Below, piece after piece: positions 331 through 8,511 of a stretch of DNA of 38,726 nt (position 1 is its first letter; every line of letters starts with the position of its first letter). Both the position numbers and the translations under genes were made by a program. The notes below the pieces were generated by a model. The model was not told the DNA's origin. It saw nothing but the letters and a program-made list of their open reading frames with translations, and ran no database searches. This DNA is from a virus (taxonomy: Duplodnaviria; Heunggongvirae; Uroviricota; Caudoviricetes). The stretch spans positions 1-38,726 of the IMG/VR virus record IMGVR_UViG_2541047763_000005; one strand, written 5' to 3'.

Positions 331-633
331 CTACGATGCAAGAATCCATACCAATAAGCATCCGATAATTGGGAAAGAAAAATCCAACAGACTTCCCACA
401 TCCCACACGCGTGGATCAAAACCTCCCCACCACGGCATGTTGATGCGTTTCCCTTTCCCAAACTTTTCTATCCAGCGATATTCTGCCTGGGTGTGTTCAC
501 GCGCAATGAAGAACGTACAACCAGCTATCGATCCGTAAGCCCAGTTTCCGGTAAAAAGACCAACCAGAACTTGTGCGACAACAGCGCAAAGTGCGTGAAG
601 AATTGGTGTTATATCAACTTCTATATTCATCAT
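331..633 (-). CDS. hypothetical small membrane protein (about 100 aa) downstream of the tailspike
   Basis: ORF from the six-frame track; hydrophobic stretches at both ends (ILHALCAVVAQVLVGLFTG, FPIIGCLLVWILAS). No family recognised; could be a moron or host-junction gene. Confidence 0.3.
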   Translation of the reverse strand: MMNIEVDITPILHALCAVVAQVLVGLFTGNWAYGSIAGCTFFIAREHTQAEYRWIEKFGKGKRINMPWWGGFDPRVWDVGSLLDFSFPIIGCLLVWILAS

Positions 634-709: not shown

Positions 710-2701
710 CTATTCCTCAATACCTAACCTGCTTGAAACCTCCGGCATAACAGTAACCTGAAGGGTTTTTGATGAATCTGTGTTTTTAATTGCTATGCTG
801 ATATTGTCAGAAGTGCTGTTATTGTTTGACACTGTTATAGAGTTTGCATCCACCCCGAGTTTCGAATAAGCATCAGCAAAACTAAGACCAACACTTCCAC
901 CAACAACTCTATATGAACCATCAATTCTGAATGACGATATATTGTTATTGCTAACATCTCTAATTAGAACCCATATAGAAATCCCCCTGAAAACAAGGCT
1001 TGCCCCTGATGGTATTTGAAGTGATACAGTTCCTGTGGAACCGGGGGGGATACTGCCAGTATATTTAGTTCCGTGCAGATATTTCCCCGGTAGATCTAAA
1101 TACGAGGTGTCTGGCTGTAATAAATTATGTATATGTCTGCTATCTATGCTTCCAGACAGAACCATAGAATCATTTCCATATTCAATTATCCTTCCACCAT
1201 CGTTACTTATTGTAAGTAATCCTTTGTTTCCTTTATTGTTTCTAACAGTTATATCAGAAGAATCCAGACGGACAATTGATATATTTCTTTCTGTTCCATG
1301 ACAATAATTTGATGAAATTTCACCTGTAACAAGTGACGTACATAAAATGTCTGAACTTCCATCACTGTCGCCAGTAATAGTGTTGCAGGAAATTAATGCA
1401 CCATATACCAGACCTGTTGGAGATTCTCCAAATTGCTCTATAGTAATCCGTTTTGTGGTATTTGCTGATATGGTTATATTATGAATATCGTCAGTTTGCG
1501 ATGTTACTTTGATCCTTGATGAAACTGTATTTCCAGAAATAGTAACATTACTTGTATCATCCACCCATAAATATGACGAAAACGTATTACCTGATATGAC
1601 TGAGTTACTCACCATTGAGTTCTCAAGCTCACATGAACCATAGCTATTGTTATGGTCATAATTTCCTATAATCCTTACAAATCCATTCTGGTTAATGAAG
1701 TTGTATGATGTTGCATTTTGTCCGCCATAAGTTGAGTTATGCGATGTTTCAGCATTTGTAACGCCTATATGTTGAAAATGACCGGCATTTACAGAATCAG
1801 GAGCAACTGATGTACACCCTATTACTTTTGTATTTTTGACAGTTCTTGAATTAGGGTCATTCTCCAAATAATAGTTTTTTGCAACAAATGCCGTAGAGTA
1901 AAAGAAACCTTCAAATCTATTAAACAAAATCTGAATATCGTCATAATCTCTTTGGTCTTCATTTGCATAGCAATAAAATGCTCTTGAAGACTCGGAGTAA
2001 TCCTTGCATTTCTGAACACCAGATAAAAGTGATCGGATTCTGCTAGATTTTATTCTAAATCCGTTGTGAATTAACGTTGCATCACCAACCAATGTTATTG
2101 GCTTAAGCAATTCAACCTTATCAAAAACAAATTCACCACCATAAAATCCAAGTATAGCCCCTTCTGGTACTGCATTAATAGCATTTTGAATTGCTACAGT
2201 ATCATCTGTTATGCCGTCTCCTTTTGCACCAAAATCACTAACACTAATGTGCTCGGCATTTTTTTGATGCTGCGTCCTTCTTATTGACAAGGTGAATGGT
2301 TGTTTTACTGCTATTAATGCATCTCCAAGATCATCACCTGAACTTGCTAACTCCTGCCTTAACTGATCCGGGTCATACTTCAGCACATTAGGAAAATAGA
2401 ACTGCTGCGCACCATATGCATCATATACAGCCATAGAATGGCCTTGCACAGTTACGAATTTGGCAATCTGCCCGTTATATACCGGATATCCAGCAGCGTT
2501 AATGATGATTGGTTGCGAAACAGGAACATGAGAGCCGTCTTCGTTCTCTACATAAACCGGAATCTGGTTTTCAGTATTTACCGGGTCCGTGTCAATTTTA
2601 CCGATATAAATTTTGCCATTGGCTACGGCTTTAAAAGAACGAGCCATAGTGAAGAGTTGCGAAGGCATGCTCACTACAACATTGGCTGTAATGTCTGTCA
2701 T
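710..2701 (-). CDS. tailspike protein, P22 gp9-type N-terminal head-binding domain with a different receptor-binding domain
   Basis: 663-aa ORF. N-terminus [11 protein letters not shown]...[34 protein letters not shown]...QP.IINAAG...[12 protein letters not shown]...NVLKYDPDQ closely matches the P22 tailspike N-terminal domain as I recall it; the rest diverges, with beta-helix-like repeats. Confidence 0.85.
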
Positions 2702-2801: not shown

Positions 2802-3731
2802 TCAGTAGTTATGTACTGAAGGAGGTAATTCTTTATTCTTAAGTCTCATCCATGCGGAAAGATTCGTTGGTCCGTCTGGCTCATTAATATCAACATCTCG
2901 TGTGTGGTTTATTAAAACGTCTCTCGCCATTCCGATAACATACGAGAATTCATGACCGTAGTCGTAGCATCTGCCGGAATAGTTCGATTGAATTTGTTTT
3001 AATGCCGGATACAGTTCGCGGAATAATGCCTGTGAACGGTTAGCATAATCCCATAGCCATACAAGGCTGTTTGCTTCTTTTGCAGAAAGCTCGTTTGCTT
3101 TCTTCTCTTGTTTGCCGATGAATTCACCTTCAAGCGGAACTCGAGCTGCAAGTGACAGTGCTTCGGTAAACTGCTCCTCACTGATTTCTTTGTACGAACA
3201 TCCAAAATGGGATTTCAGTGACGACCACATGGTGATCATCGCCTTAGCCTGCTTTTCTTTTGGTAGAGACTGACCGCGACTCATGACGAGTTGTTTAATG
3301 GCTTCCTGCTGTTCAGTGGTTATTTTACCCGGCAACGCCTTTTTAGCTTTGCGTGGGTTAACTACATGGCCTTTAGTCCAGTACTCGTAGAGCACATCGT
3401 CACACTCTTCCTGATACTGGATTACCTTGTCGCGGATTTCAGGGCGGACTTTGTTTGGACTGATGGTTTGCAGCCAGCCAGCAAGTTTGCGAAGTGCCAA
3501 ACAAATAATCTCACGGCACTGTTCATCACCAGGAAGCTGCATTGTGATTTTCACAATGGAGGTTTTAAACCGTTGCTTTATTTTCGTAAACTGTGAAGCC
3601 CAATCCATACCCATACCTTCAACGATAGGTTTCATTGGGGTGTACGGCTCACCGTTGTGATTGACGACATAAAGCTCTGCGCCGTGGAATGGCACGTTGA
3701 TAGTAGATACTGGAGTTGCTATACTTTTCAT
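2802..3731 (-). CDS. ant: antirepressor Ant (immI region)
   Basis: 309-aa ORF directly downstream of arc and divergent from mnt, the P22 immI arrangement; N-terminal region resembles the AntA-type antirepressor domain (recollection). Confidence 0.7.
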
Positions 3732-3797
3732 GTCAGTTTTTCCTCAAAATTTACTGGCGATTTAAGCCCGAGCTACTCGCAATAGCTTGGGCTTTAC

Positions 3798-3944
3798 TCA
3801 TTCTGGACAAACAATTCCATCCTTAGCTACTGACTCCTTTAGTCTCCTCAATACCTCATTACTGAACGACCGATCATCCTTTTTCGCGGACTGCTCCAAA
3901 GCCTTTTCCAGCCATTCTGGCATCCTTAATGTCTTAACTTTCAT
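3798..3944 (-). CDS. arc: Arc-like ribbon-helix-helix repressor (48 aa, below the ORF-track cutoff)
   Basis: Hand translation MKVKTLRMPEWLEKALEQSAKKDDRSFSNEVLRRLKESVAKDGIVCPE; aligns with P22 Arc in the beta-strand and first helix (RSVNSEIYQRV versus RSFSNEVLRRL). Sits between mnt and ant. Confidence 0.7.
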   Translation of the reverse strand: MKVKTLRMPEWLEKALEQSAKKDDRSFSNEVLRRLKESVAKDGIVCPE

Positions 3945-4048
3945 TTTTGCTCCTTTGTATGTGGTACGCATACATAGTATTTAGGTACGCATTGATAGTC
4001 AATAGATACCTACATATCCTGTGGTAAATAATTATTCAGGATGCGCCG
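3945..4048. promoter_or_regulatory. divergent arc-ant / mnt promoter-operator region
   Basis: 104-bp gap between the divergent arc and mnt starts. Inverted repeats GTATG-TGGTACG-CATAC (3957-3973) and AGGTA...TACCT (3983-4011); GGTACGCAT occurs twice. Candidate Arc/Mnt operators by analogy with P22. Confidence 0.45.
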
Positions 4049-4300
4049 ATGTCTGATCGTAAGTACAAAAACCCTCAAGTGAATCTGAGGCTTCCTGTAG
4101 AGATAAAGGAACGTCTTATTGAGCTGGCTGAGGCTAATTCTCGTTCATTAAATGCTGAGATGGTAGCAGCACTTGAGGCATGGACTGAAAAAAATAAACA
4201 TATTCAAGCACTAGATATTGCAACTATAGCATCGCGGTTGATAGAGCTTGAGCATGAGGTTGAGAAGTTAAAATGTATGCATGGCAACGGTGAAAAATGA
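4049..4300 (+). CDS. mnt: Mnt-like ribbon-helix-helix repressor
   Basis: 83-aa ORF, the same length as P22 Mnt; N-terminal RHH motif NLRLPVEIKERLIELAEANSRSLNAEMVAAL parallels P22 Mnt NFRMPMEVREKLKFRAEANGRSMNSELL; divergent from arc-ant. Confidence 0.75.
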   Translation: MSDRKYKNPQVNLRLPVEIKERLIELAEANSRSLNAEMVAALEAWTEKNKHIQALDIATIASRLIELEHEVEKLKCMHGNGEK

Positions 4301-4611
4301 AACGCATCGCTATTTTGTTAATATTGTTCTTCTCTACAATAGTTTGCGCCAAACAAAAATCAGATAATGGCGATCTTAAAGGCCTGCAAGAACTCATGAT
4401 AACTTCGAAATTTGCTGGCATGTGCGGCACAATCAAACAAATGGCAACATTTCAAGAATCAACAAAAATGCCTGGCGGAGATGAGTTCTTACAGCGTTTT
4501 CTGACCACAGAGCAAGCAAGACTTGGAATGAATCCACAGGAGTTTCTTGAAGCATGCCAGAAGTCAATTTCAGCTTATACCAATTATTACAATCTAACTT
4601 CTGATAAATAA
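4297..4611 (+). CDS. small secreted protein, likely moron, translationally coupled to mnt
   Basis: 104-aa ORF whose ATG overlaps the mnt stop (ATGA). N-terminal signal-peptide-like sequence MKRIAILLILFFSTIVCAKQ. The DNA is visibly AT-rich compared with its flanks. Confidence 0.5.
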   Translation: MKRIAILLILFFSTIVCAKQKSDNGDLKGLQELMITSKFAGMCGTIKQMATFQESTKMPGGDEFLQRFLTTEQARLGMNPQEFLEACQKSISAYTNYYNLTSDK

Positions 4612-4636
4612 TAGAAAGGATTTTATAAATAACTTT

Positions 4637-5122
4637 ATGAAAAAATCACTATTAATTATCCCGCTTCTGCTGGCTGGATGCGCAAAAGTAAGTGACTATC
4701 AAGCAAGTTGCGAACAACGCTATCAAAAGCTTAGCGATATGGCTAATTGCCTTGATGCCAGTGTGAAGAACGACTCACGCATGGCATCAGCACCAACACC
4801 TAAGCTGTATGTCCTTGCTGCAAAGATGCTCGGGCAAGGTGTCGATGAAGGAAAGATAAGTGACGCACAGGCAAGACTTGAGCTTCAGAATCTTTATGTT
4901 CAATTACAAAGCCAAGAACAAGCCCAACAAATAGCACAAAGCCAAGCATTCCAGCAGGCTTTATTGAATTATCAGGCTGTAAACACAATGCAAGCGATCG
5001 AGCAAAAAGCGCGCCAGCCTGTTATAACTCAACCTTACCCAACACGCGTTGACACATATACAAACTGCAATTCAGGATTTGGAAACGCGGTAACATGCAA
5101 CAGTAGCAGTAACATCAGATAA
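4637..5122 (+). CDS. lipoprotein (lipobox LLAGC), likely moron
   Basis: 161-aa ORF; MKKSLLIIPLLLAGC is a canonical lipoprotein signal with lipobox Cys; Gln-rich central region; Cys-containing C-terminus. Same strand as mnt, convergent with the structural operon. Confidence 0.55.
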   Translation: MKKSLLIIPLLLAGCAKVSDYQASCEQRYQKLSDMANCLDASVKNDSRMASAPTPKLYVLAAKMLGQGVDEGKISDAQARLELQNLYVQLQSQEQAQQIAQSQAFQQALLNYQAVNTMQAIEQKARQPVITQPYPTRVDTYTNCNSGFGNAVTCNSSSNIR

Positions 5123-5212
5123 CAATCAGCAAAGGTATCGCCTATGCAGAGGAATACGATAAACCTCGCGTTCTACATATTTGGTTTTTGCACGTTCCTG
5201 GTGTTTGAAAGG

Positions 5213-7210
5213 CTATTCTGACAACGAATCAGACTTAGCACCCTGCGTCAGTGCATTAATCGCTTTTTGCGCTTGCTGCATGGCTTTCTCAAACGCTGTC
5301 GATCCGCGTGGTGTGTTTGCCATTCGGAGCATTGCATTTCTGAATGGTTCGCTCTCATAGGCGCGAGTAAGAAGTCCGTAGCTTACCGCTGCGCCAGTTG
5401 TCGCCGGGTTCATTGCTGTCCCATACCCGATAATGAACGGGATGGTTTGCTGCCCTGTTGGTGTTGTTACTGCCGCTTTTGCAGCCTGCTGCGTGGATTG
5501 CAGGTAGTTTTTCAATCCTTTCAGATAAGCAGCGTCCTGCCCCTTAAATGTGATGCCAGTCTGGTTTTGCAGGATGTTAAGCTGTCGAAGGAACTGATCA
5601 GGGGAACCACCTGATTTCTCCATCGCCTTTCCAATGATGCCATTGCGCATTTGCGCCCTGCCAACACGACCAACTGAGTTATACAGCGTCTTAATTTCCG
5701 ATTTGTTCTTGCTGAATAGCATGTTGTTGACAACTTCCGGCGTCAGGTCGCCTTTCATGAGAACATTCTTCAGCATGGTATTCTTTAGTTTCGCCGCTTC
5801 GTCAGCGTAGACGGCATTGGCCTGCTGATATTTACGGAGAGTATCGTTGCCAAGATTCTGACCAATGGCACCATTGATATCGTCGGTCATTGCCTTGTAA
5901 ACGCGCTGAATGGCAGCATCGGAACGGTTTGGTAACACTGGTCGCTCACCCTTCACATCCATTCTGAACTGGCTGCGCAGATCGCTTAATTGCTTCAAAT
6001 CCAGATTTACCGGACCATCAGGACCAGCATTGCGAACAAGCTCATCACGATAGGACTGAAGTTTTGAAATAGTCTCGTTATCAGCAACCTTACCAAGCTT
6101 CTGCAGGTTAGATATTTCTGTATCAATCTGCTGAATTGCTCTTGCAGGCTGAATGTTTATTCCCGCCATAGCATTCTGAACCTGCTCCAGTCGATTACCG
6201 GCGGCACGACGAATTCCTGATGTTTTCGCTTTAAGGCTGTCAATAACAACCGCTGGATCATACTCACCGAATTTATCAGCAAATCTCTGAACCAACTGGC
6301 TTCTCGCTTCCTGTTGCGTTGCTCTCATTCCGCTTGTGCCAGCCAGGGGGATATTTTCTGCTGTCGTTTGCGCCATTTTTCCGACGCGGGAAGTAGGCTG
6401 TAACAGGTCTGTGGTGTGCAGAGGAACTCCTTCACGCTCTGCAAATCTGATAGCCTGCTGCGCTTCTGGCGCAATAGCACCACGAACGCCACGATAAGCA
6501 GCACCTAATCCACGTCCGGCAGCGTTAATAGCACCGCCAGCCAGAACGCCAACGCCTAAATCGGTGGCGAGTGCTTCCGCATCATCTTTCGCACTATTTG
6601 CAGCAAGTGATCCAACTGCGTTTTCTGCTAGAAGGCGAGTTGCCCCCTGAGCAATTCGACCAGCAAGTGTTGGTGCCTGTGCTGCCGCTCTCTCAACGCC
6701 AGCAGGAGTGAGGTAAGGCAATGCTTCAGCAAATACCCTTCCCTCTGTCGTTTGTGGAGTGAGCGCGCCTTGCTGAAGGCCAAAGTCCTGCTCTAACCCC
6801 TGCGTTGTTACTCGTGGCGCTGGTTGATATGTACCATCGCCAATGCCGAGTTTACCGCCAGCCCATGCCGCCGCGCTTGTTACAGCATCGGCAACTGATG
6901 CAGGTATGTTTGCCACGTTCACGCCAGCCTGCACCAGTCCGCGACCAGTTTCTTTCACGGCTTCACCAAGATCCGACATAAATCCACTTTGCTGTGGTTG
7001 TTGCTGTGATACTGGTTGTTGTGTCTCCACTGGCTGCACAGATGGCAATGGATAGGCAGCATAGAAAGCTTGCTTAGCCTGCTCTGCATTTTCTCCGGCT
7101 TGCGGGGCAACGACTTCATTGAAGTATTGCTCCTGAGCCTGCGCTTTTTGTTCTGGTGCTAACGCCTGATACTGTGGAGAGGCGATAACATCTTTCCATG
7201 CTTTAGCCAT
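5213..7210 (-). CDS. ejection (internal virion) protein, P22 gp16-like
   Basis: 665-aa Ala/Gly/Gln-rich ORF at the gp16 position, last gene of the ejection-protein trio before the immI region. Confidence 0.7.
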   Translation of the reverse strand: MAKAWKDVIASPQYQALAPEQKAQAQEQYFNEVVAPQAGENAEQAKQAFYAAYPLPSVQPVETQQPVSQQQPQQSGFMSDLGEAVKETGRGLVQAGVNVANIPASVADAVTSAAAWAGGKLGIGDGTYQPAPRVTTQGLEQDFGLQQGALTPQTTEGRVFAEALPYLTPAGVERAAAQAPTLAGRIAQGATRLLAENAVGSLAANSAKDDAEALATDLGVGVLAGGAINAAGRGLGAAYRGVRGAIAPEAQQAIRFAEREGVPLHTTDLLQPTSRVGKMAQTTAENIPLAGTSGMRATQQEARSQLVQRFADKFGEYDPAVVIDSLKAKTSGIRRAAGNRLEQVQNAMAGINIQPARAIQQIDTEISNLQKLGKVADNETISKLQSYRDELVRNAGPDGPVNLDLKQLSDLRSQFRMDVKGERPVLPNRSDAAIQRVYKAMTDDINGAIGQNLGNDTLRKYQQANAVYADEAAKLKNTMLKNVLMKGDLTPEVVNNMLFSKNKSEIKTLYNSVGRVGRAQMRNGIIGKAMEKSGGSPDQFLRQLNILQNQTGITFKGQDAAYLKGLKNYLQSTQQAAKAAVTTPTGQQTIPFIIGYGTAMNPATTGAAVSYGLLTRAYESEPFRNAMLRMANTPRGSTAFEKAMQQAQKAINALTQGAKSDSLSE

Positions 7211-8511
7211 TAATCACCCCATAGCGAAGAAAAGTTACTGCCAGTAGTAGATTGTTGCCCTGGCATATTCTGCACCGGCTCCTGATAATCAAACTGTTTT
7301 TTAACAGTGCTCAACTTGCTTTCAAGCTGATTTCTAATCTTTCCGATAGAGTCACGAAAAGCCTTTTCACTCATTTTGGGGCTTAGGGCACCAACCGCAT
7401 CGGATAATTTTTTACCCTCTGCATCTGAAAGAGCGCCCATACCCTTCAGGGACTGCACCATAGGAAGGAATGTTTGAGCTTTAAAGGTGTCGAGCCTTGC
7501 TTCAAAGTTAGCCGCATCAGAGCCAGGAACTGTCGGAAACGCTGAGCGAATTCCTACTGCTTTTGAAAGGCCGGGGCTTTGCTCTATCTCGTTGAGAGAA
7601 TCAAGCGCGGTGCTGAACGTATCAACTGCACCCTGAGCGGCGGCCTGCCTGTCAGCGCGGGCTATGTCAGCCTTTTGCCGAACATCTGCCTGTTTCTGTT
7701 TTAGCTCTTCAAGCTTTAACTGATTGCTTTCTCTGGCTATCTGTCTGTCCAGAGCCTTTTCTTGTAATTCTGCTCTTTGTATTTCTCGGGAAAGAGCAGC
7801 ATTCTGTGCGCTGATGTTCTGTCCACGTATCTGGATGTCCTGACCTCGAGCTGTTAGTGCTTCTCCTGCCTGATTGCTGCGGATTGTCTCTGCCAGCCTG
7901 CCTCGGTCAATCTCACGACCAGCCATCTTGTCCTGAACATTGAAGTAATCAATCGGACCAAGAGCAGCCATTCCAAGGTGATCAACAAACTCACCAAATC
8001 CTGAAGGATTCTGCTGATACATCTGAGCAACGTTATTAGGGTCAACACCGACGCGAGTCAGTTCCTTGGCGTTGTTTTGCAGCCATGATTGCATTGCTTC
8101 TGGAGACGATGACGCAAGGCGTGCGCCAGCCGCTAAGGTACCGATGGAATTGCGCTGGTCTTCGTCTGCCCACTTCATACCAGACTGAATCTTCTCTAAT
8201 TGACCAGGATATTTGGTCATCAGATTTCGAACCTGCTGTCGATCGCCGGACTGGATGGCTGCCGCATATTCTTTTTGGAATGCAGCATCCGCTTCCTGTT
8301 GCTTTGCGGCTTGATATGCTTGAGCGACACTACCAAGACCCTGCAACGCCTGAAGGCCGATGTTATTGCGACCTGAGCGCTCCATTTCGTTGTTCTGGCG
8401 AATATAGGCCAACGCCTCACTTACATCACTTGCCTTTGGCGCATTTGAGTTTTGCCCACCGATACCAGCAAGAAAGCCGCCTGAGTTGATTCCTTGTTGC
8501 CAAGTAGCCAT
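7210..8511 (-). CDS. ejection protein, P22 gp20-like
   Basis: 433-aa ORF between the gp7-like and gp16-like genes; coiled-coil and Gln/Ala-rich composition; start overlaps the neighbouring stop. Confidence 0.7.
   Translation of the reverse strand: MATWQQGINSGGFLAGIGGQNSNAPKASDVSEALAYIRQNNEMERSGRNNIGLQALQGLGSVAQAYQAAKQQEADAAFQKEYAAAIQSGDRQQVRNLMTKYPGQLEKIQSGMKWADEDQRNSIGTLAAGARLASSSPEAMQSWLQNNAKELTRVGVDPNNVAQMYQQNPSGFGEFVDHLGMAALGPIDYFNVQDKMAGREIDRGRLAETIRSNQAGEALTARGQDIQIRGQNISAQNAALSREIQRAELQEKALDRQIARESNQLKLEELKQKQADVRQKADIARADRQAAAQGAVDTFSTALDSLNEIEQSPGLSKAVGIRSAFPTVPGSDAANFEARLDTFKAQTFLPMVQSLKGMGALSDAEGKKLSDAVGALSPKMSEKAFRDSIGKIRNQLESKLSTVKKQFDYQEPVQNMPGQQSTTGSNFSSLWGD

Follow-up and report, generated by a model that had tools for sequence, protein, structure and literature searches.

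The question raised by the viral record IMGVR_UViG_2541047763_000005, which we analysed as a single stretch of 38,726 nucleotides (nt) and call the window, is what is done by two small genes that follow its mnt-like repressor gene and run against the genes on either side. The window is a complete P22-like prophage in reverse orientation. Between its arc-ant-tailspike genes and its gene-16/20 ejection genes, both on the minus strand, lies a plus-strand trio made up of the mnt-like gene and two open reading frames (ORFs) encoding proteins of 104 and 161 amino acids (aa), here called ORF104 and ORF161, and these three are the only ORFs listed for the window in the slot between gene 16 and the immI region. 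An earlier, preliminary description of this DNA had placed both ORFs on the plus strand after mnt, opposed to the structural operon, with the start codon of the first overlapping the mnt stop codon, and all of this was confirmed. The evidence supports the view that ORF104 and ORF161 are morons, or accessory genes of the prophage, independent of each other and both encoding predicted exported proteins, and an orthologue of ORF161 is transcribed from a resident prophage. Their most likely function appears to be envelope-level protection of the lysogen against incoming phage (superinfection exclusion), a proposal that we put forward tentatively and at somewhat less than an even chance.

The independence of the two genes can be seen from their distribution in 5426 complete Escherichia coli genomes. 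ORF161 was found in 186 of them (3.4%; full length in 182) and ORF104 in 61, and the whole mnt-ORF104-ORF161 block was present in only 18, including O104:H4 outbreak strains at 98% identity, which leaves ORF161 alone in approximately 168 of its 186 genomes. Upstream of the other 43 copies of ORF104 (60-80% identity) lies a different mnt allele, joined to ORF104 by the same kind of ATGA overlap, and other cargo replaces ORF161. Five phage records carry ORF161 and two carry ORF104, and P22 has neither; the pathogen lineages that bear ORF161 include O104:H4, O26:H11 and the adherent-invasive E. coli (AIEC) strain LF82. Every ORF161 locus in Serratia, Morganella, Proteus, Providencia and Tatumella is without ORF104. 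Salmonella P22-like prophages and phage Kapi1, in turn, carry distant relatives of ORF104 on their own beside gene 16, and the Kapi1 protein has a signal peptide at residues 1-22 according to the DeepTMHMM note of its depositors. Further relatives were seen in a Mu-like phage, inserted in the head module on the strand opposite to it (locus L016, 5776-6102), in a lambdoid prophage of Pseudomonas chlororaphis, where the gene converges on cI (L019, 7001-7324), and in the early region of another phage; a member of the ORF161 superfamily lies in an integrase/DUF3987 element. A conserved partner of ORF104 outside P22-like phages was sought and none was found. Given these separate occurrences, ORF104 and ORF161 are independently mobile cassettes that happen to be stacked in the window, and their earlier designation as a pair was not borne out, since each is more often found singly than together and each occupies the slot alone elsewhere.

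Both genes also have the properties of morons in the Hendrix/Juhala sense, namely presence or absence among related phages and a base composition unlike that of their neighbours. The guanine-plus-cytosine (GC) content is 0.378 for ORF104 and 0.438 for ORF161, whereas the window as a whole has 0.471 and the late operon 0.502; the earlier wording of two AT-rich genes is clearly right for ORF104, and ORF161 is only mildly so. The ratio of nonsynonymous to synonymous substitution rates (dN/dS) is 0.145 for ORF104 against a homologue, and for ORF161 it is 0.04 against the copies of phages Gally and VSe13, 0.20 against that of O26:H11 and 0.13 against that of Morganella. Because these values are low, both are judged to be real genes under purifying selection and not chance ORFs. 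A lone lipoprotein of the ORF161 superfamily, which lacks the C-terminal Cys hairpin, was also seen in Pectobacterium peruviense (L035, 5438-6411), beside a DNA-pol-III-theta-like gene and between dsbB and minCDE; the same theta-like gene is found at the end of Morganella and Proteus P22-like prophages (L003, L004, L025), and the Pectobacterium lipoprotein may have been left behind by a prophage of that kind.

ORF161 was described earlier as a Gln-rich lipoprotein of 161 aa with an LLAGC lipobox, and this assignment holds. Its N-terminus, MKKSLLIIPLLLAG/C (the slash marks the cleavage site), contains the canonical lipobox L-A-G-C at residues 12-15, which gives a signal peptide of residues 1-14 (nt 4637-4678) and a predicted lipid-modified Cys15 (nt 4679-4681). 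This Cys is found without exception in the family (28 of 28 members) and throughout the wider superfamily. The residue at position +2 is Ala, with Thr, Val, Ser or Gln in relatives and in no case Asp, the Lol avoidance signal, and sorting to the outer membrane is predicted from it. The mature chain of 147 aa is 14% Gln and has no further hydrophobic segment (top 19-residue Kyte-Doolittle mean 0.47). It is ordered as a conserved helical N-domain of disulfide type (residues 15-95, with invariant C25 and C38) and a Gln-rich helix (approximately 95-125), after which a linker containing Pro leads to a two-Cys hairpin at the C-terminus; in the family alignment (A1), little or no variation is seen at the lipobox Cys, at C25 and C38, at a C-terminal Cys and over most of residues 15-95. 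AlphaFold2 predicts a four-helix N-domain at a predicted local distance difference test (pLDDT) score of approximately 80, then a long Gln-rich helix of low confidence and, within a disordered tail (pLDDT <50), a short hairpin. By single-sequence search the family comprises 93 clusters, all in Enterobacterales. By profile search the N-domain belongs to a wider, unnamed lipoprotein superfamily of mostly 125-135 aa (251 representative clusters at E <0.001, 97 at <1e-10), whose architecture consists of the lipobox Cys, a YQxxCE motif with a second Cys 12 residues on, helices, a variable linker and a C-terminal TTxCxxxGxxxxCxx[Y/R] hairpin. Two alternative C-terminal tails occur in the ORF161 family (A1 columns ~140-178; residues ~128-161), ..NCNSGFGNxVTCNSSSNIR and ..TTNCTTYGNQTRCQSY; both keep two Cys and are distributed as a mosaic over otherwise similar N-domains, and the tail may carry specificity.

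For ORF104, the signal peptide claimed earlier for the 104-aa protein has all of its parts, that is, an n-region with two positive charges, a hydrophobic core with a mean Kyte-Doolittle value of ~2.5 and a V-x-A cleavage site (MKRIAILLILFFSTIVCA/KQ). The peptide covers residues 1-18 (nt 4297-4350) and leaves a mature chain of 86 aa with two Cys and no hydrophobic segment (top 19-residue mean 0.65), and the protein is acidic (isoelectric point 5.3). Across the family (alignment A2) the signal peptide is variable, and the Cys pair C43 and C87 and the motif FQESTKMPGGDEF are conserved, the two Cys being invariant. The mature protein is predicted by AlphaFold2 to be a three-helix bundle (helices 26-56, 61-76 and 80-101; mean pLDDT 77, core 85-94). 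The family amounts to 18 clusters by single-sequence search and to 310 proteins of approximately 100 aa by profile search, with Enterobacterales, Pseudomonas, Methylophaga, Nitrosomonas, Sulfurimonas and uncultured Caudoviricetes as hosts or sources, and no Pfam domain was found in any of the 310. The assignment of both proteins to export rests on sequence rules together with conservation in the families.

The profile and structure searches that the preliminary description had called for gave no named family for either protein. Scans of both against Pfam, NCBIfam and PADLOC gave no significant family, sequence profile searches of the Protein Data Bank (PDB) were empty, Foldseek against BFVD gave nothing at E <0.001, and Pfam Lambda_Bor and TraT were matched by neither at E up to 1. 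No similarity of ORF104 to the solved structures of Spackle was found in sequence or fold, and the FxRYPxEAxxFNK motif is absent from both proteins. No paper on either of them was retrieved when the literature was searched with accessions, locus tags and PHROG numbers. Several weak matches were considered and rejected: an NCBIfam GspK match (E 0.001) lies on the Gln-rich helix of ORF161, far below the cut-off, and is compositional; matches of ten ORF161-superfamily members to RcsF, LpoB, TraV and type VI secretion system (T6SS) immunity models of Pfam and NCBIfam all lie on the signal peptide; and a match of ORF161 to the Cor family (phrog_1119, E 0.03) covers residues 1-31 only, again the signal peptide. 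The proteins had been called of the Cor/Bor/SieA kind, and as a statement of family membership this did not survive, as neither sequence nor fold is similar.

The position of the genes is more informative. In the P22 annotation, gene 16 is followed by sieA, which lies on the opposite strand and has a promoter of its own; next come the mnt terminator, orf59a and mnt, and finally Pant-arc-sar-ant-9. By comparison with this order, ORF161 stands at the place of sieA, convergent with gene 16 and between genes 16 and 9, and ORF104 stands at the place of orf59a, directly downstream of mnt; the earlier statement that the two genes sit where P22 carries sieA is therefore right for ORF161 and wrong for ORF104. 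In the window, ORF161 and the gene-16 homologue are tail-to-tail with a gap of 90 nt. The same arrangement was observed in all 19 loci examined (9 to 90 nt apart), which come from Escherichia, Salmonella, Citrobacter, Serratia, Morganella, Proteus, Providencia, Tatumella and one Enterobacteriaceae metagenome-assembled genome (MAG); the E. coli loci inspected are a sample of the 186, and a scan of species-representative genomes with alignment A1 gave five loci only. The gene-16 partners themselves vary widely. The partner in O26 is 74% identical to P22 gp16 and that in the window 33%, and over most of their length the types found in Morganella and Serratia bear little relation to these. An association of ORF161 with one particular gene-16 type was considered and rejected, its partners ranging from 74% to ~30% identity to P22 gp16 or being largely unrelated to it, and such divergence indicates that ORF161 does not co-vary with the ejection protein. 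Upstream, ORF161 is preceded directly by mnt in Serratia, Proteus phage Brookers, O26:H11 and Tatumella, by an opposite-strand gene in Gally, VSe13 and LR-60, and, in Morganella and the MAG, where mnt is absent, by the tailspike gene. The window becomes homologous at the DNA level to Gally and many E. coli prophages exactly at the ORF161 start codon.

Other envelope proteins use the same slot, namely SieA in the inner membrane (P22) and a second lipoprotein, GALLYPH_14, in Gally, and locus L011 (6328-8185) holds a SocA/Panacea-domain module together with an unrelated 129-aa signal-peptide protein that adjoins gene 16. A HicA/DUF1902 toxin-antitoxin pair in a Salmonella prophage (L023, 6005-6541) and a 60-aa secreted protein in Kapi1 (L024, 3734-3916) were also seen there; in general terms, the slot resembles a hot spot for genes concerned with defence or the envelope. 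Using P22 SieA (type A) as the query, tblastn found no type A SieA in the window or in 35 related loci.

How the two genes might be expressed in the window can be judged from the region upstream. The start codon of ORF104 overlaps the mnt stop codon in an ATGA junction (..GAAAAATGAAACGC..), and 25 nt separate the ORF104 stop codon from the ORF161 start codon. The mnt-ORF104 ATGA junction is kept across divergent mnt alleles (including that of L011), and mnt and ORF161 are 17 nt apart in Serratia and Proteus phage Brookers and 70-75 nt apart in O26:H11 and Tatumella. No consensus promoter or terminator was found by scanning 4300-5210, nor a terminator 3' of ORF161, in scans that rely on consensus matches whose counts are no higher than in shuffled controls. 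Because of the overlap, the short gap, the lack of a terminator or strong internal promoter and the tight junctions that recur elsewhere, we infer that mnt, ORF104 and ORF161 form one transcription unit in the window. Upstream of mnt there are two plus-strand promoter-like sites, TTGATA-17-TATCCT (3992-4020) and TAGATA-18-AATAAT (4003-4032), overlapped by a minus-strand site, TTGACT-17-TACTAT (4002-3974), and an inverted repeat with 18-nt arms (3978-3995 and 3999-4016; 78% complementary). This layout of divergent sites and repeat matches the annotated Pant/Pmnt/Oarc/Omnt region of P22, and it would presumably drive mnt-ORF104-ORF161. All features of a P22-type immI region are present, that is, divergent ribbon-helix-helix genes, overlapping promoter-like sites, an operator-like repeat, ant after arc, and a sar-like match below threshold, which suggests that immI antisense control is kept in a divergent immI region. 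The product of the first gene was earlier labelled Mnt, which is correct at the level of the Arc/Mnt repressor family (PF03869), although it has diverged to 42% identity with P22 Mnt over 36 aa only. At ORF161 loci without the mnt-linked context, promoter-like sites lie upstream and transcripts exist; in the window, ORF104 and ORF161 appear to borrow Pmnt.

Expression of an ORF161-type gene is documented by published RNA sequencing (PMC9928086 S1 Table; Misson et al. 2023) for phage Gally, a P22-like prophage of AIEC LF82, and these data concern an orthologue in a different upstream context from that of the window. The orthologue, GALLYPH_13 (LF82_138), has 97.5% aa identity to ORF161 and lies outside the mnt operon, with an opposite-strand gene between and promoter-like sites upstream. 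In overnight lysogeny broth (LB), GALLYPH_13 had 70.2 normalised reads against a prophage median of 15.6, or 4.5-fold, and within Gally only the c2 repressor (727) was above it (PMC9928086). Its log2(fpkm+5) value, where fpkm is fragments per kilobase per million, was ~6.1 in LB, 7.9-8.2 in conditions B1/B6 and, in macrophages, 10.3 after 1 h and 8.6 after 6 h (PMC9928086), and its induction in macrophages was approximately 18-fold; the paper reports that the five rightmost Gally genes, GALLYPH_13 included, are induced 6- to 40-fold in macrophages (PMC9928086). With reads above the prophage median, the ORF161-type lipoprotein gene is on in the resident prophage while the structural genes are silent. 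GALLYPH_14 (LF82_139; L001 3448-3867, minus strand), which is divergent from GALLYPH_13 and has the lipobox MKRIIGVVAGAILLSG/C and a weak PEGA-domain match (E 0.004), rises from a log2 value of ~5.5 in LB to 11.0 in macrophages and likewise lies just under the 5-fold moron cut-off of that study (PMC9928086). Taken together, the earlier claim of lysogen-expressed morons is supported by the patchy distribution of both genes in P22-like prophages and, for ORF161, by the transcription of its orthologue; ORF104 would probably be expressed likewise.

Comparison with characterised systems shows which kinds of mechanism may be considered. Small outer-membrane lipoproteins of phages, such as Cor (phi80/N15/HK022) and Llp of T5, block FhuA and thereby exclude phages, in the lysogen or early in infection. 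By protein type they are the closest mechanistic model for ORF161, although ORF161 is twice as long and P22-like phages bind O-antigen first, so that a protein receptor targeted by ORF161, if any, would be secondary. T4 Spackle is a small, helical periplasmic protein made with a signal peptide that blocks the tail lysozyme of incoming phage, and ORF104 resembles it in its small size, in its signal peptide and in its predicted mature form, which is helical and periplasmic. Lambda Bor and plasmid TraT resemble ORF161 as outer-membrane lipoproteins of mobile elements that are expressed in the lysogen (Bor, TraT: serum resistance). P22 orf59a, like ORF104, lies directly downstream of mnt in the mnt transcript, but it is unrelated in sequence, encodes 59 aa without a signal peptide and starts 99 nt after mnt instead of overlapping it. 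P22 SieA and ORF161 have in common their place between genes 16 and 9, where both converge on gene 16, the orientation against the late operon, expression from the prophage, an envelope location and a similar length (162-164 aa compared with 161 aa). In contrast to ORF161, SieA has no signal peptide and is an inner-membrane protein with three to four transmembrane (TM) segments and a cytoplasmic FxRYPxEAxxFNK motif, whereas ORF161 has a lipobox, a mature chain without a TM segment and a predicted outer-membrane location; moreover, sieA has its own promoter past the mnt terminator, and the window has neither a terminator nor a strong promoter between mnt and ORF104/ORF161. SieA blocks ejection as an inner-membrane protein, is the sole studied system thought to block DNA delivery by short-tailed phages and is present in 22 of 66 sequenced P22-like phages (PMC10883804). 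In the mEpimmI coliphages, the lipobox proteins Lpp021 and Lpp010 are encoded in the structural gene cluster and, when made from a plasmid, exclude phages with the same outer-membrane receptor, OmpA or LamB (PMC11893012); they belong to a different phage group, are likened to ORF161 by description, and the exclusion phenotype is theirs.

From these elements a protective mechanism can be proposed. ORF104 and ORF161 would be stacked in a hypervariable slot between gene 16 and the immI/tailspike genes, ORF104 being translationally coupled to mnt through the ATGA junction and ORF161 coming next in the mnt unit, and as members of the mnt transcript they would be made while the prophage is resident; in lytic growth, Arc and convergent late transcription, reading through to the tailspike gene, would oppose their expression. 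ORF104 would be exported by Sec and cleaved after Ala18, yielding an 86-aa helical periplasmic protein that is probably disulfide-bonded. ORF161 would be lipidated at Cys15 and carried by the Lol pathway to the periplasmic side of the outer membrane, with its conserved helical domain at the membrane and the Gln-rich helix and Cys hairpin reaching into the periplasm; both the localisations and the disulfides are read from sequence. There ORF161 could act as a positional substitute for the inner-membrane SieA and either lock a secondary outer-membrane receptor or obstruct the assembly of the gp7/gp20/gp16 conduit across the periplasm, and ORF104 could be a soluble periplasmic factor with an independent target. 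This anti-entry reading is favoured because the slot repeatedly holds unrelated envelope proteins (SieA, ORF161, GALLYPH_14, ORF104 and the 129-aa and 60-aa proteins), because SieA, the one characterised occupant, blocks DNA delivery, and because receptor-acting exclusion lipoproteins are established (Cor and Llp; Lpp021 and Lpp010, PMC11893012).

Several observations weigh against this reading. No likeness to SieA, Cor, Bor, TraT, Llp, Spackle or PADLOC models was found by sequence, profile or fold. The dN/dS of ~0.04 for ORF161 and its near-identical alleles beside very different gene-16 types are unlike an arms-race protein that follows a target in the phage, and would agree just as well with a conserved target in the host. 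Relatives also occur outside prophages, a member of the ORF161 superfamily in a core-gene neighbourhood (L026) and a relative of ORF104 in a non-phage region of a Sulfurimonas chromosome (L020, 6609-7312), where it has an ATGA-type overlap with an upstream 131-aa gene. The authors of the Gally study applied a moron cut-off of 5-fold (78.1) and stated that Gally is devoid of morons (PMC9928086), GALLYPH_13 not being listed because its 4.5-fold value is under that cut-off. Gally mnt was at background level in LB (PMC9928086), and if ORF104 and ORF161 of the window depend on Pmnt alone, their expression in standard culture may be low. Finally, strong purifying selection, the lack of co-variation with gene 16, the non-phage members and the induction in host cells fit lysogenic conversion equally well.

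Lysogenic conversion is the strongest of the rivals, although we consider it unlikely on balance. Here ORF104 and ORF161 would be host-fitness factors that remodel or protect the envelope in a host or stress niche, in a Bor-like manner and to the benefit of the bacterium, whether or not phages attack. Besides the selection pattern, it can draw on the rise of GALLYPH_13 (log2 6.1 to 10.3) and GALLYPH_14 in cell-culture conditions and macrophages, on superfamily members in core-chromosome and non-P22 settings and on the pathogenic lineages O104:H4, O26:H11 and AIEC LF82 that carry ORF161. However, according to the Gally study, deletion of the whole prophage left the survival of LF82 in macrophages unchanged at 6 or 24 h (PMC9928086), neither protein is similar to Bor, TraT, Ail/Lom or a known virulence family, and the strict placement beside the ejection genes in the sieA slot of P22 is left unexplained by it. 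A different role, chiefly for ORF104, would be that of an orphan immunity protein or inhibitor against cell-wall-attacking enzymes, whether T6SS- or colicin-type effectors or phage muralytic enzymes, as with Spackle. ORF104, being small, acidic, helical and periplasmic with a disulfide-type Cys pair, has the typical format of a periplasmic inhibitor, it is spread over many prophage types and some chromosomes, and some gene-16 homologues in these prophages bear an SLT lytic-transglycosylase domain; yet no effector gene adjoins ORF104 in any locus examined, and PADLOC and NCBIfam scans give no match, which makes this role improbable.

The remaining two explanations concern the unit in which the genes act and the stage at which they act. 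An obligate two-component unit, for example a complex bridging the outer membrane and the periplasm, would agree with the adjacent, same-strand and probably co-transcribed genes of the window and of the 18 E. coli genomes, O104:H4 included. This reading is largely refuted by the distribution and seems quite improbable: ORF161 occurs without ORF104 in most of its E. coli genomes and in all loci of Serratia, Morganella, Proteus, Providencia and Tatumella, relatives of ORF104 occur without ORF161 in 43 E. coli genomes, Salmonella, Kapi1, the Mu-like phage and the Pseudomonas lambdoid prophage, and the homology with Gally begins exactly at the ORF161 start codon. That the genes encode lytic-cycle proteins, as accessories of the virion, ejection, lysis or assembly, might be thought from their location inside the late region beside ejection genes and from the likeness of ORF161, as an outer-membrane lipoprotein, to o-spanins. 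They are nevertheless on the strand opposite to the late operon, most P22-like phages, P22 among them, lack both, the ORF161 orthologue is transcribed at a time when structural genes are silent, and the Rz lysis gene of Gally is elsewhere, all of which makes a lytic role very improbable indeed. Superinfection exclusion at the envelope stays our preferred, if provisional, reading of both genes.

The genes around the trio are collected in Table 1. The gene-16 type of the window, of 665 aa, is annotated as an "injection protein" in phage Gally and is named "lytic transglycosylase domain-containing protein" by RefSeq (window 5213-7210, minus strand; L033 4077-6074); the window copy has no Pfam match at E up to 0.01, and the Serratia homologues of 893-901 aa (L007, 6492-9197) do have PF01464 (SLT). 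Mosaicism is extreme among the ejection proteins of these prophages. The tailspike gene has a GC content of 0.377, with 0.33-0.39 in the receptor-binding part, and a conserved N-terminal head-binding domain; this combination is the usual sign of horizontal exchange of receptor-binding modules. Downstream of it, near the prophage end, a 100-aa ORF (331-633, minus strand) has no Pfam match.

Table 1 Features of the window around the mnt-like gene, with the evidence for each assignment.
Feature	Position (nt)	Strand	Evidence
Tailspike	710..2701	-	Pfam Head_binding, E 5e-66 (N-terminal head-binding domain)
ant	2802..3731	-	Pfam P22_AR_N and P22_AR_C; downstream of arc
sar-like antisense RNA between arc and ant	3732..3798	+	Rfam RF00262, full-length 1-68/68, 29.3 bits, E 0.004; gathering score of 43 not reached; same position as P22 sar
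arc-like repressor gene, 57 aa	3798..3971	-	Pfam Arc PF03869, E 2e-5; divergent from mnt
Promoter-like sites and operator-like inverted repeat, presumed Pant/Pmnt	3974..4032	both	Consensus matches only
mnt-like ribbon-helix-helix repressor gene, 83 aa	4049..4300	+	Pfam Arc PF03869, E 3e-10; phrog_795, E 9e-24
ORF104, predicted secreted periplasmic protein	4297..4611	+	Signal peptide; phrog_19844 ("unknown function"), E 6e-63
ORF161, predicted lipoprotein	4637..5122	+	LLAG/C lipobox; phrog_6067 ("unknown function"), E 9e-110
gene-16 homologue, ejection protein, 665 aa	5213..7210	-	33% identical to P22 gp16 over 582 aa
gene-20 homologue	7210..8511	-	Pfam Inj_translocase, E 6e-71

In conclusion, prophage morons for exported proteins are a familiar category, and the sequence families of ORF104 and ORF161 are uncharacterised and unnamed within it. 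Both genes are unannotated everywhere, and the expression data for ORF161 were overlooked because they fall just under an arbitrary cut-off. Our analysis names occupants of the slot for many P22-like phages that lack sieA, and it draws attention to the prevalence of ORF161 among complete E. coli genomes and in major pathogens, to its invariable linkage with gene 16 over nine genera, to those overlooked data and to the slot as a site at which envelope proteins are swapped. In its broadest form, which we regard as speculative and rather unlikely as a whole, the ORF161 family would be a widespread new class of outer-membrane-anchored exclusion lipoprotein for short-tailed phages, serving as the alternative to SieA in the approximately two-thirds of P22-like phages without sieA and acting at the gp7/gp20/gp16 conduit or at a secondary receptor; ORF104 would be an independent and broadly distributed periplasmic anti-entry factor, and the slot an "entry-defence island" in which SieA, ORF161, ORF104, GALLYPH_14 and the 129-aa and 60-aa proteins are exchanged. 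If the genes do not serve exclusion, they would be candidate envelope-remodelling conversion genes that are induced inside macrophages. If they do, they would be relevant to phage therapy and to the typing of these pathogens, and would offer a handle on the poorly understood periplasmic stage of genome delivery by podoviruses.

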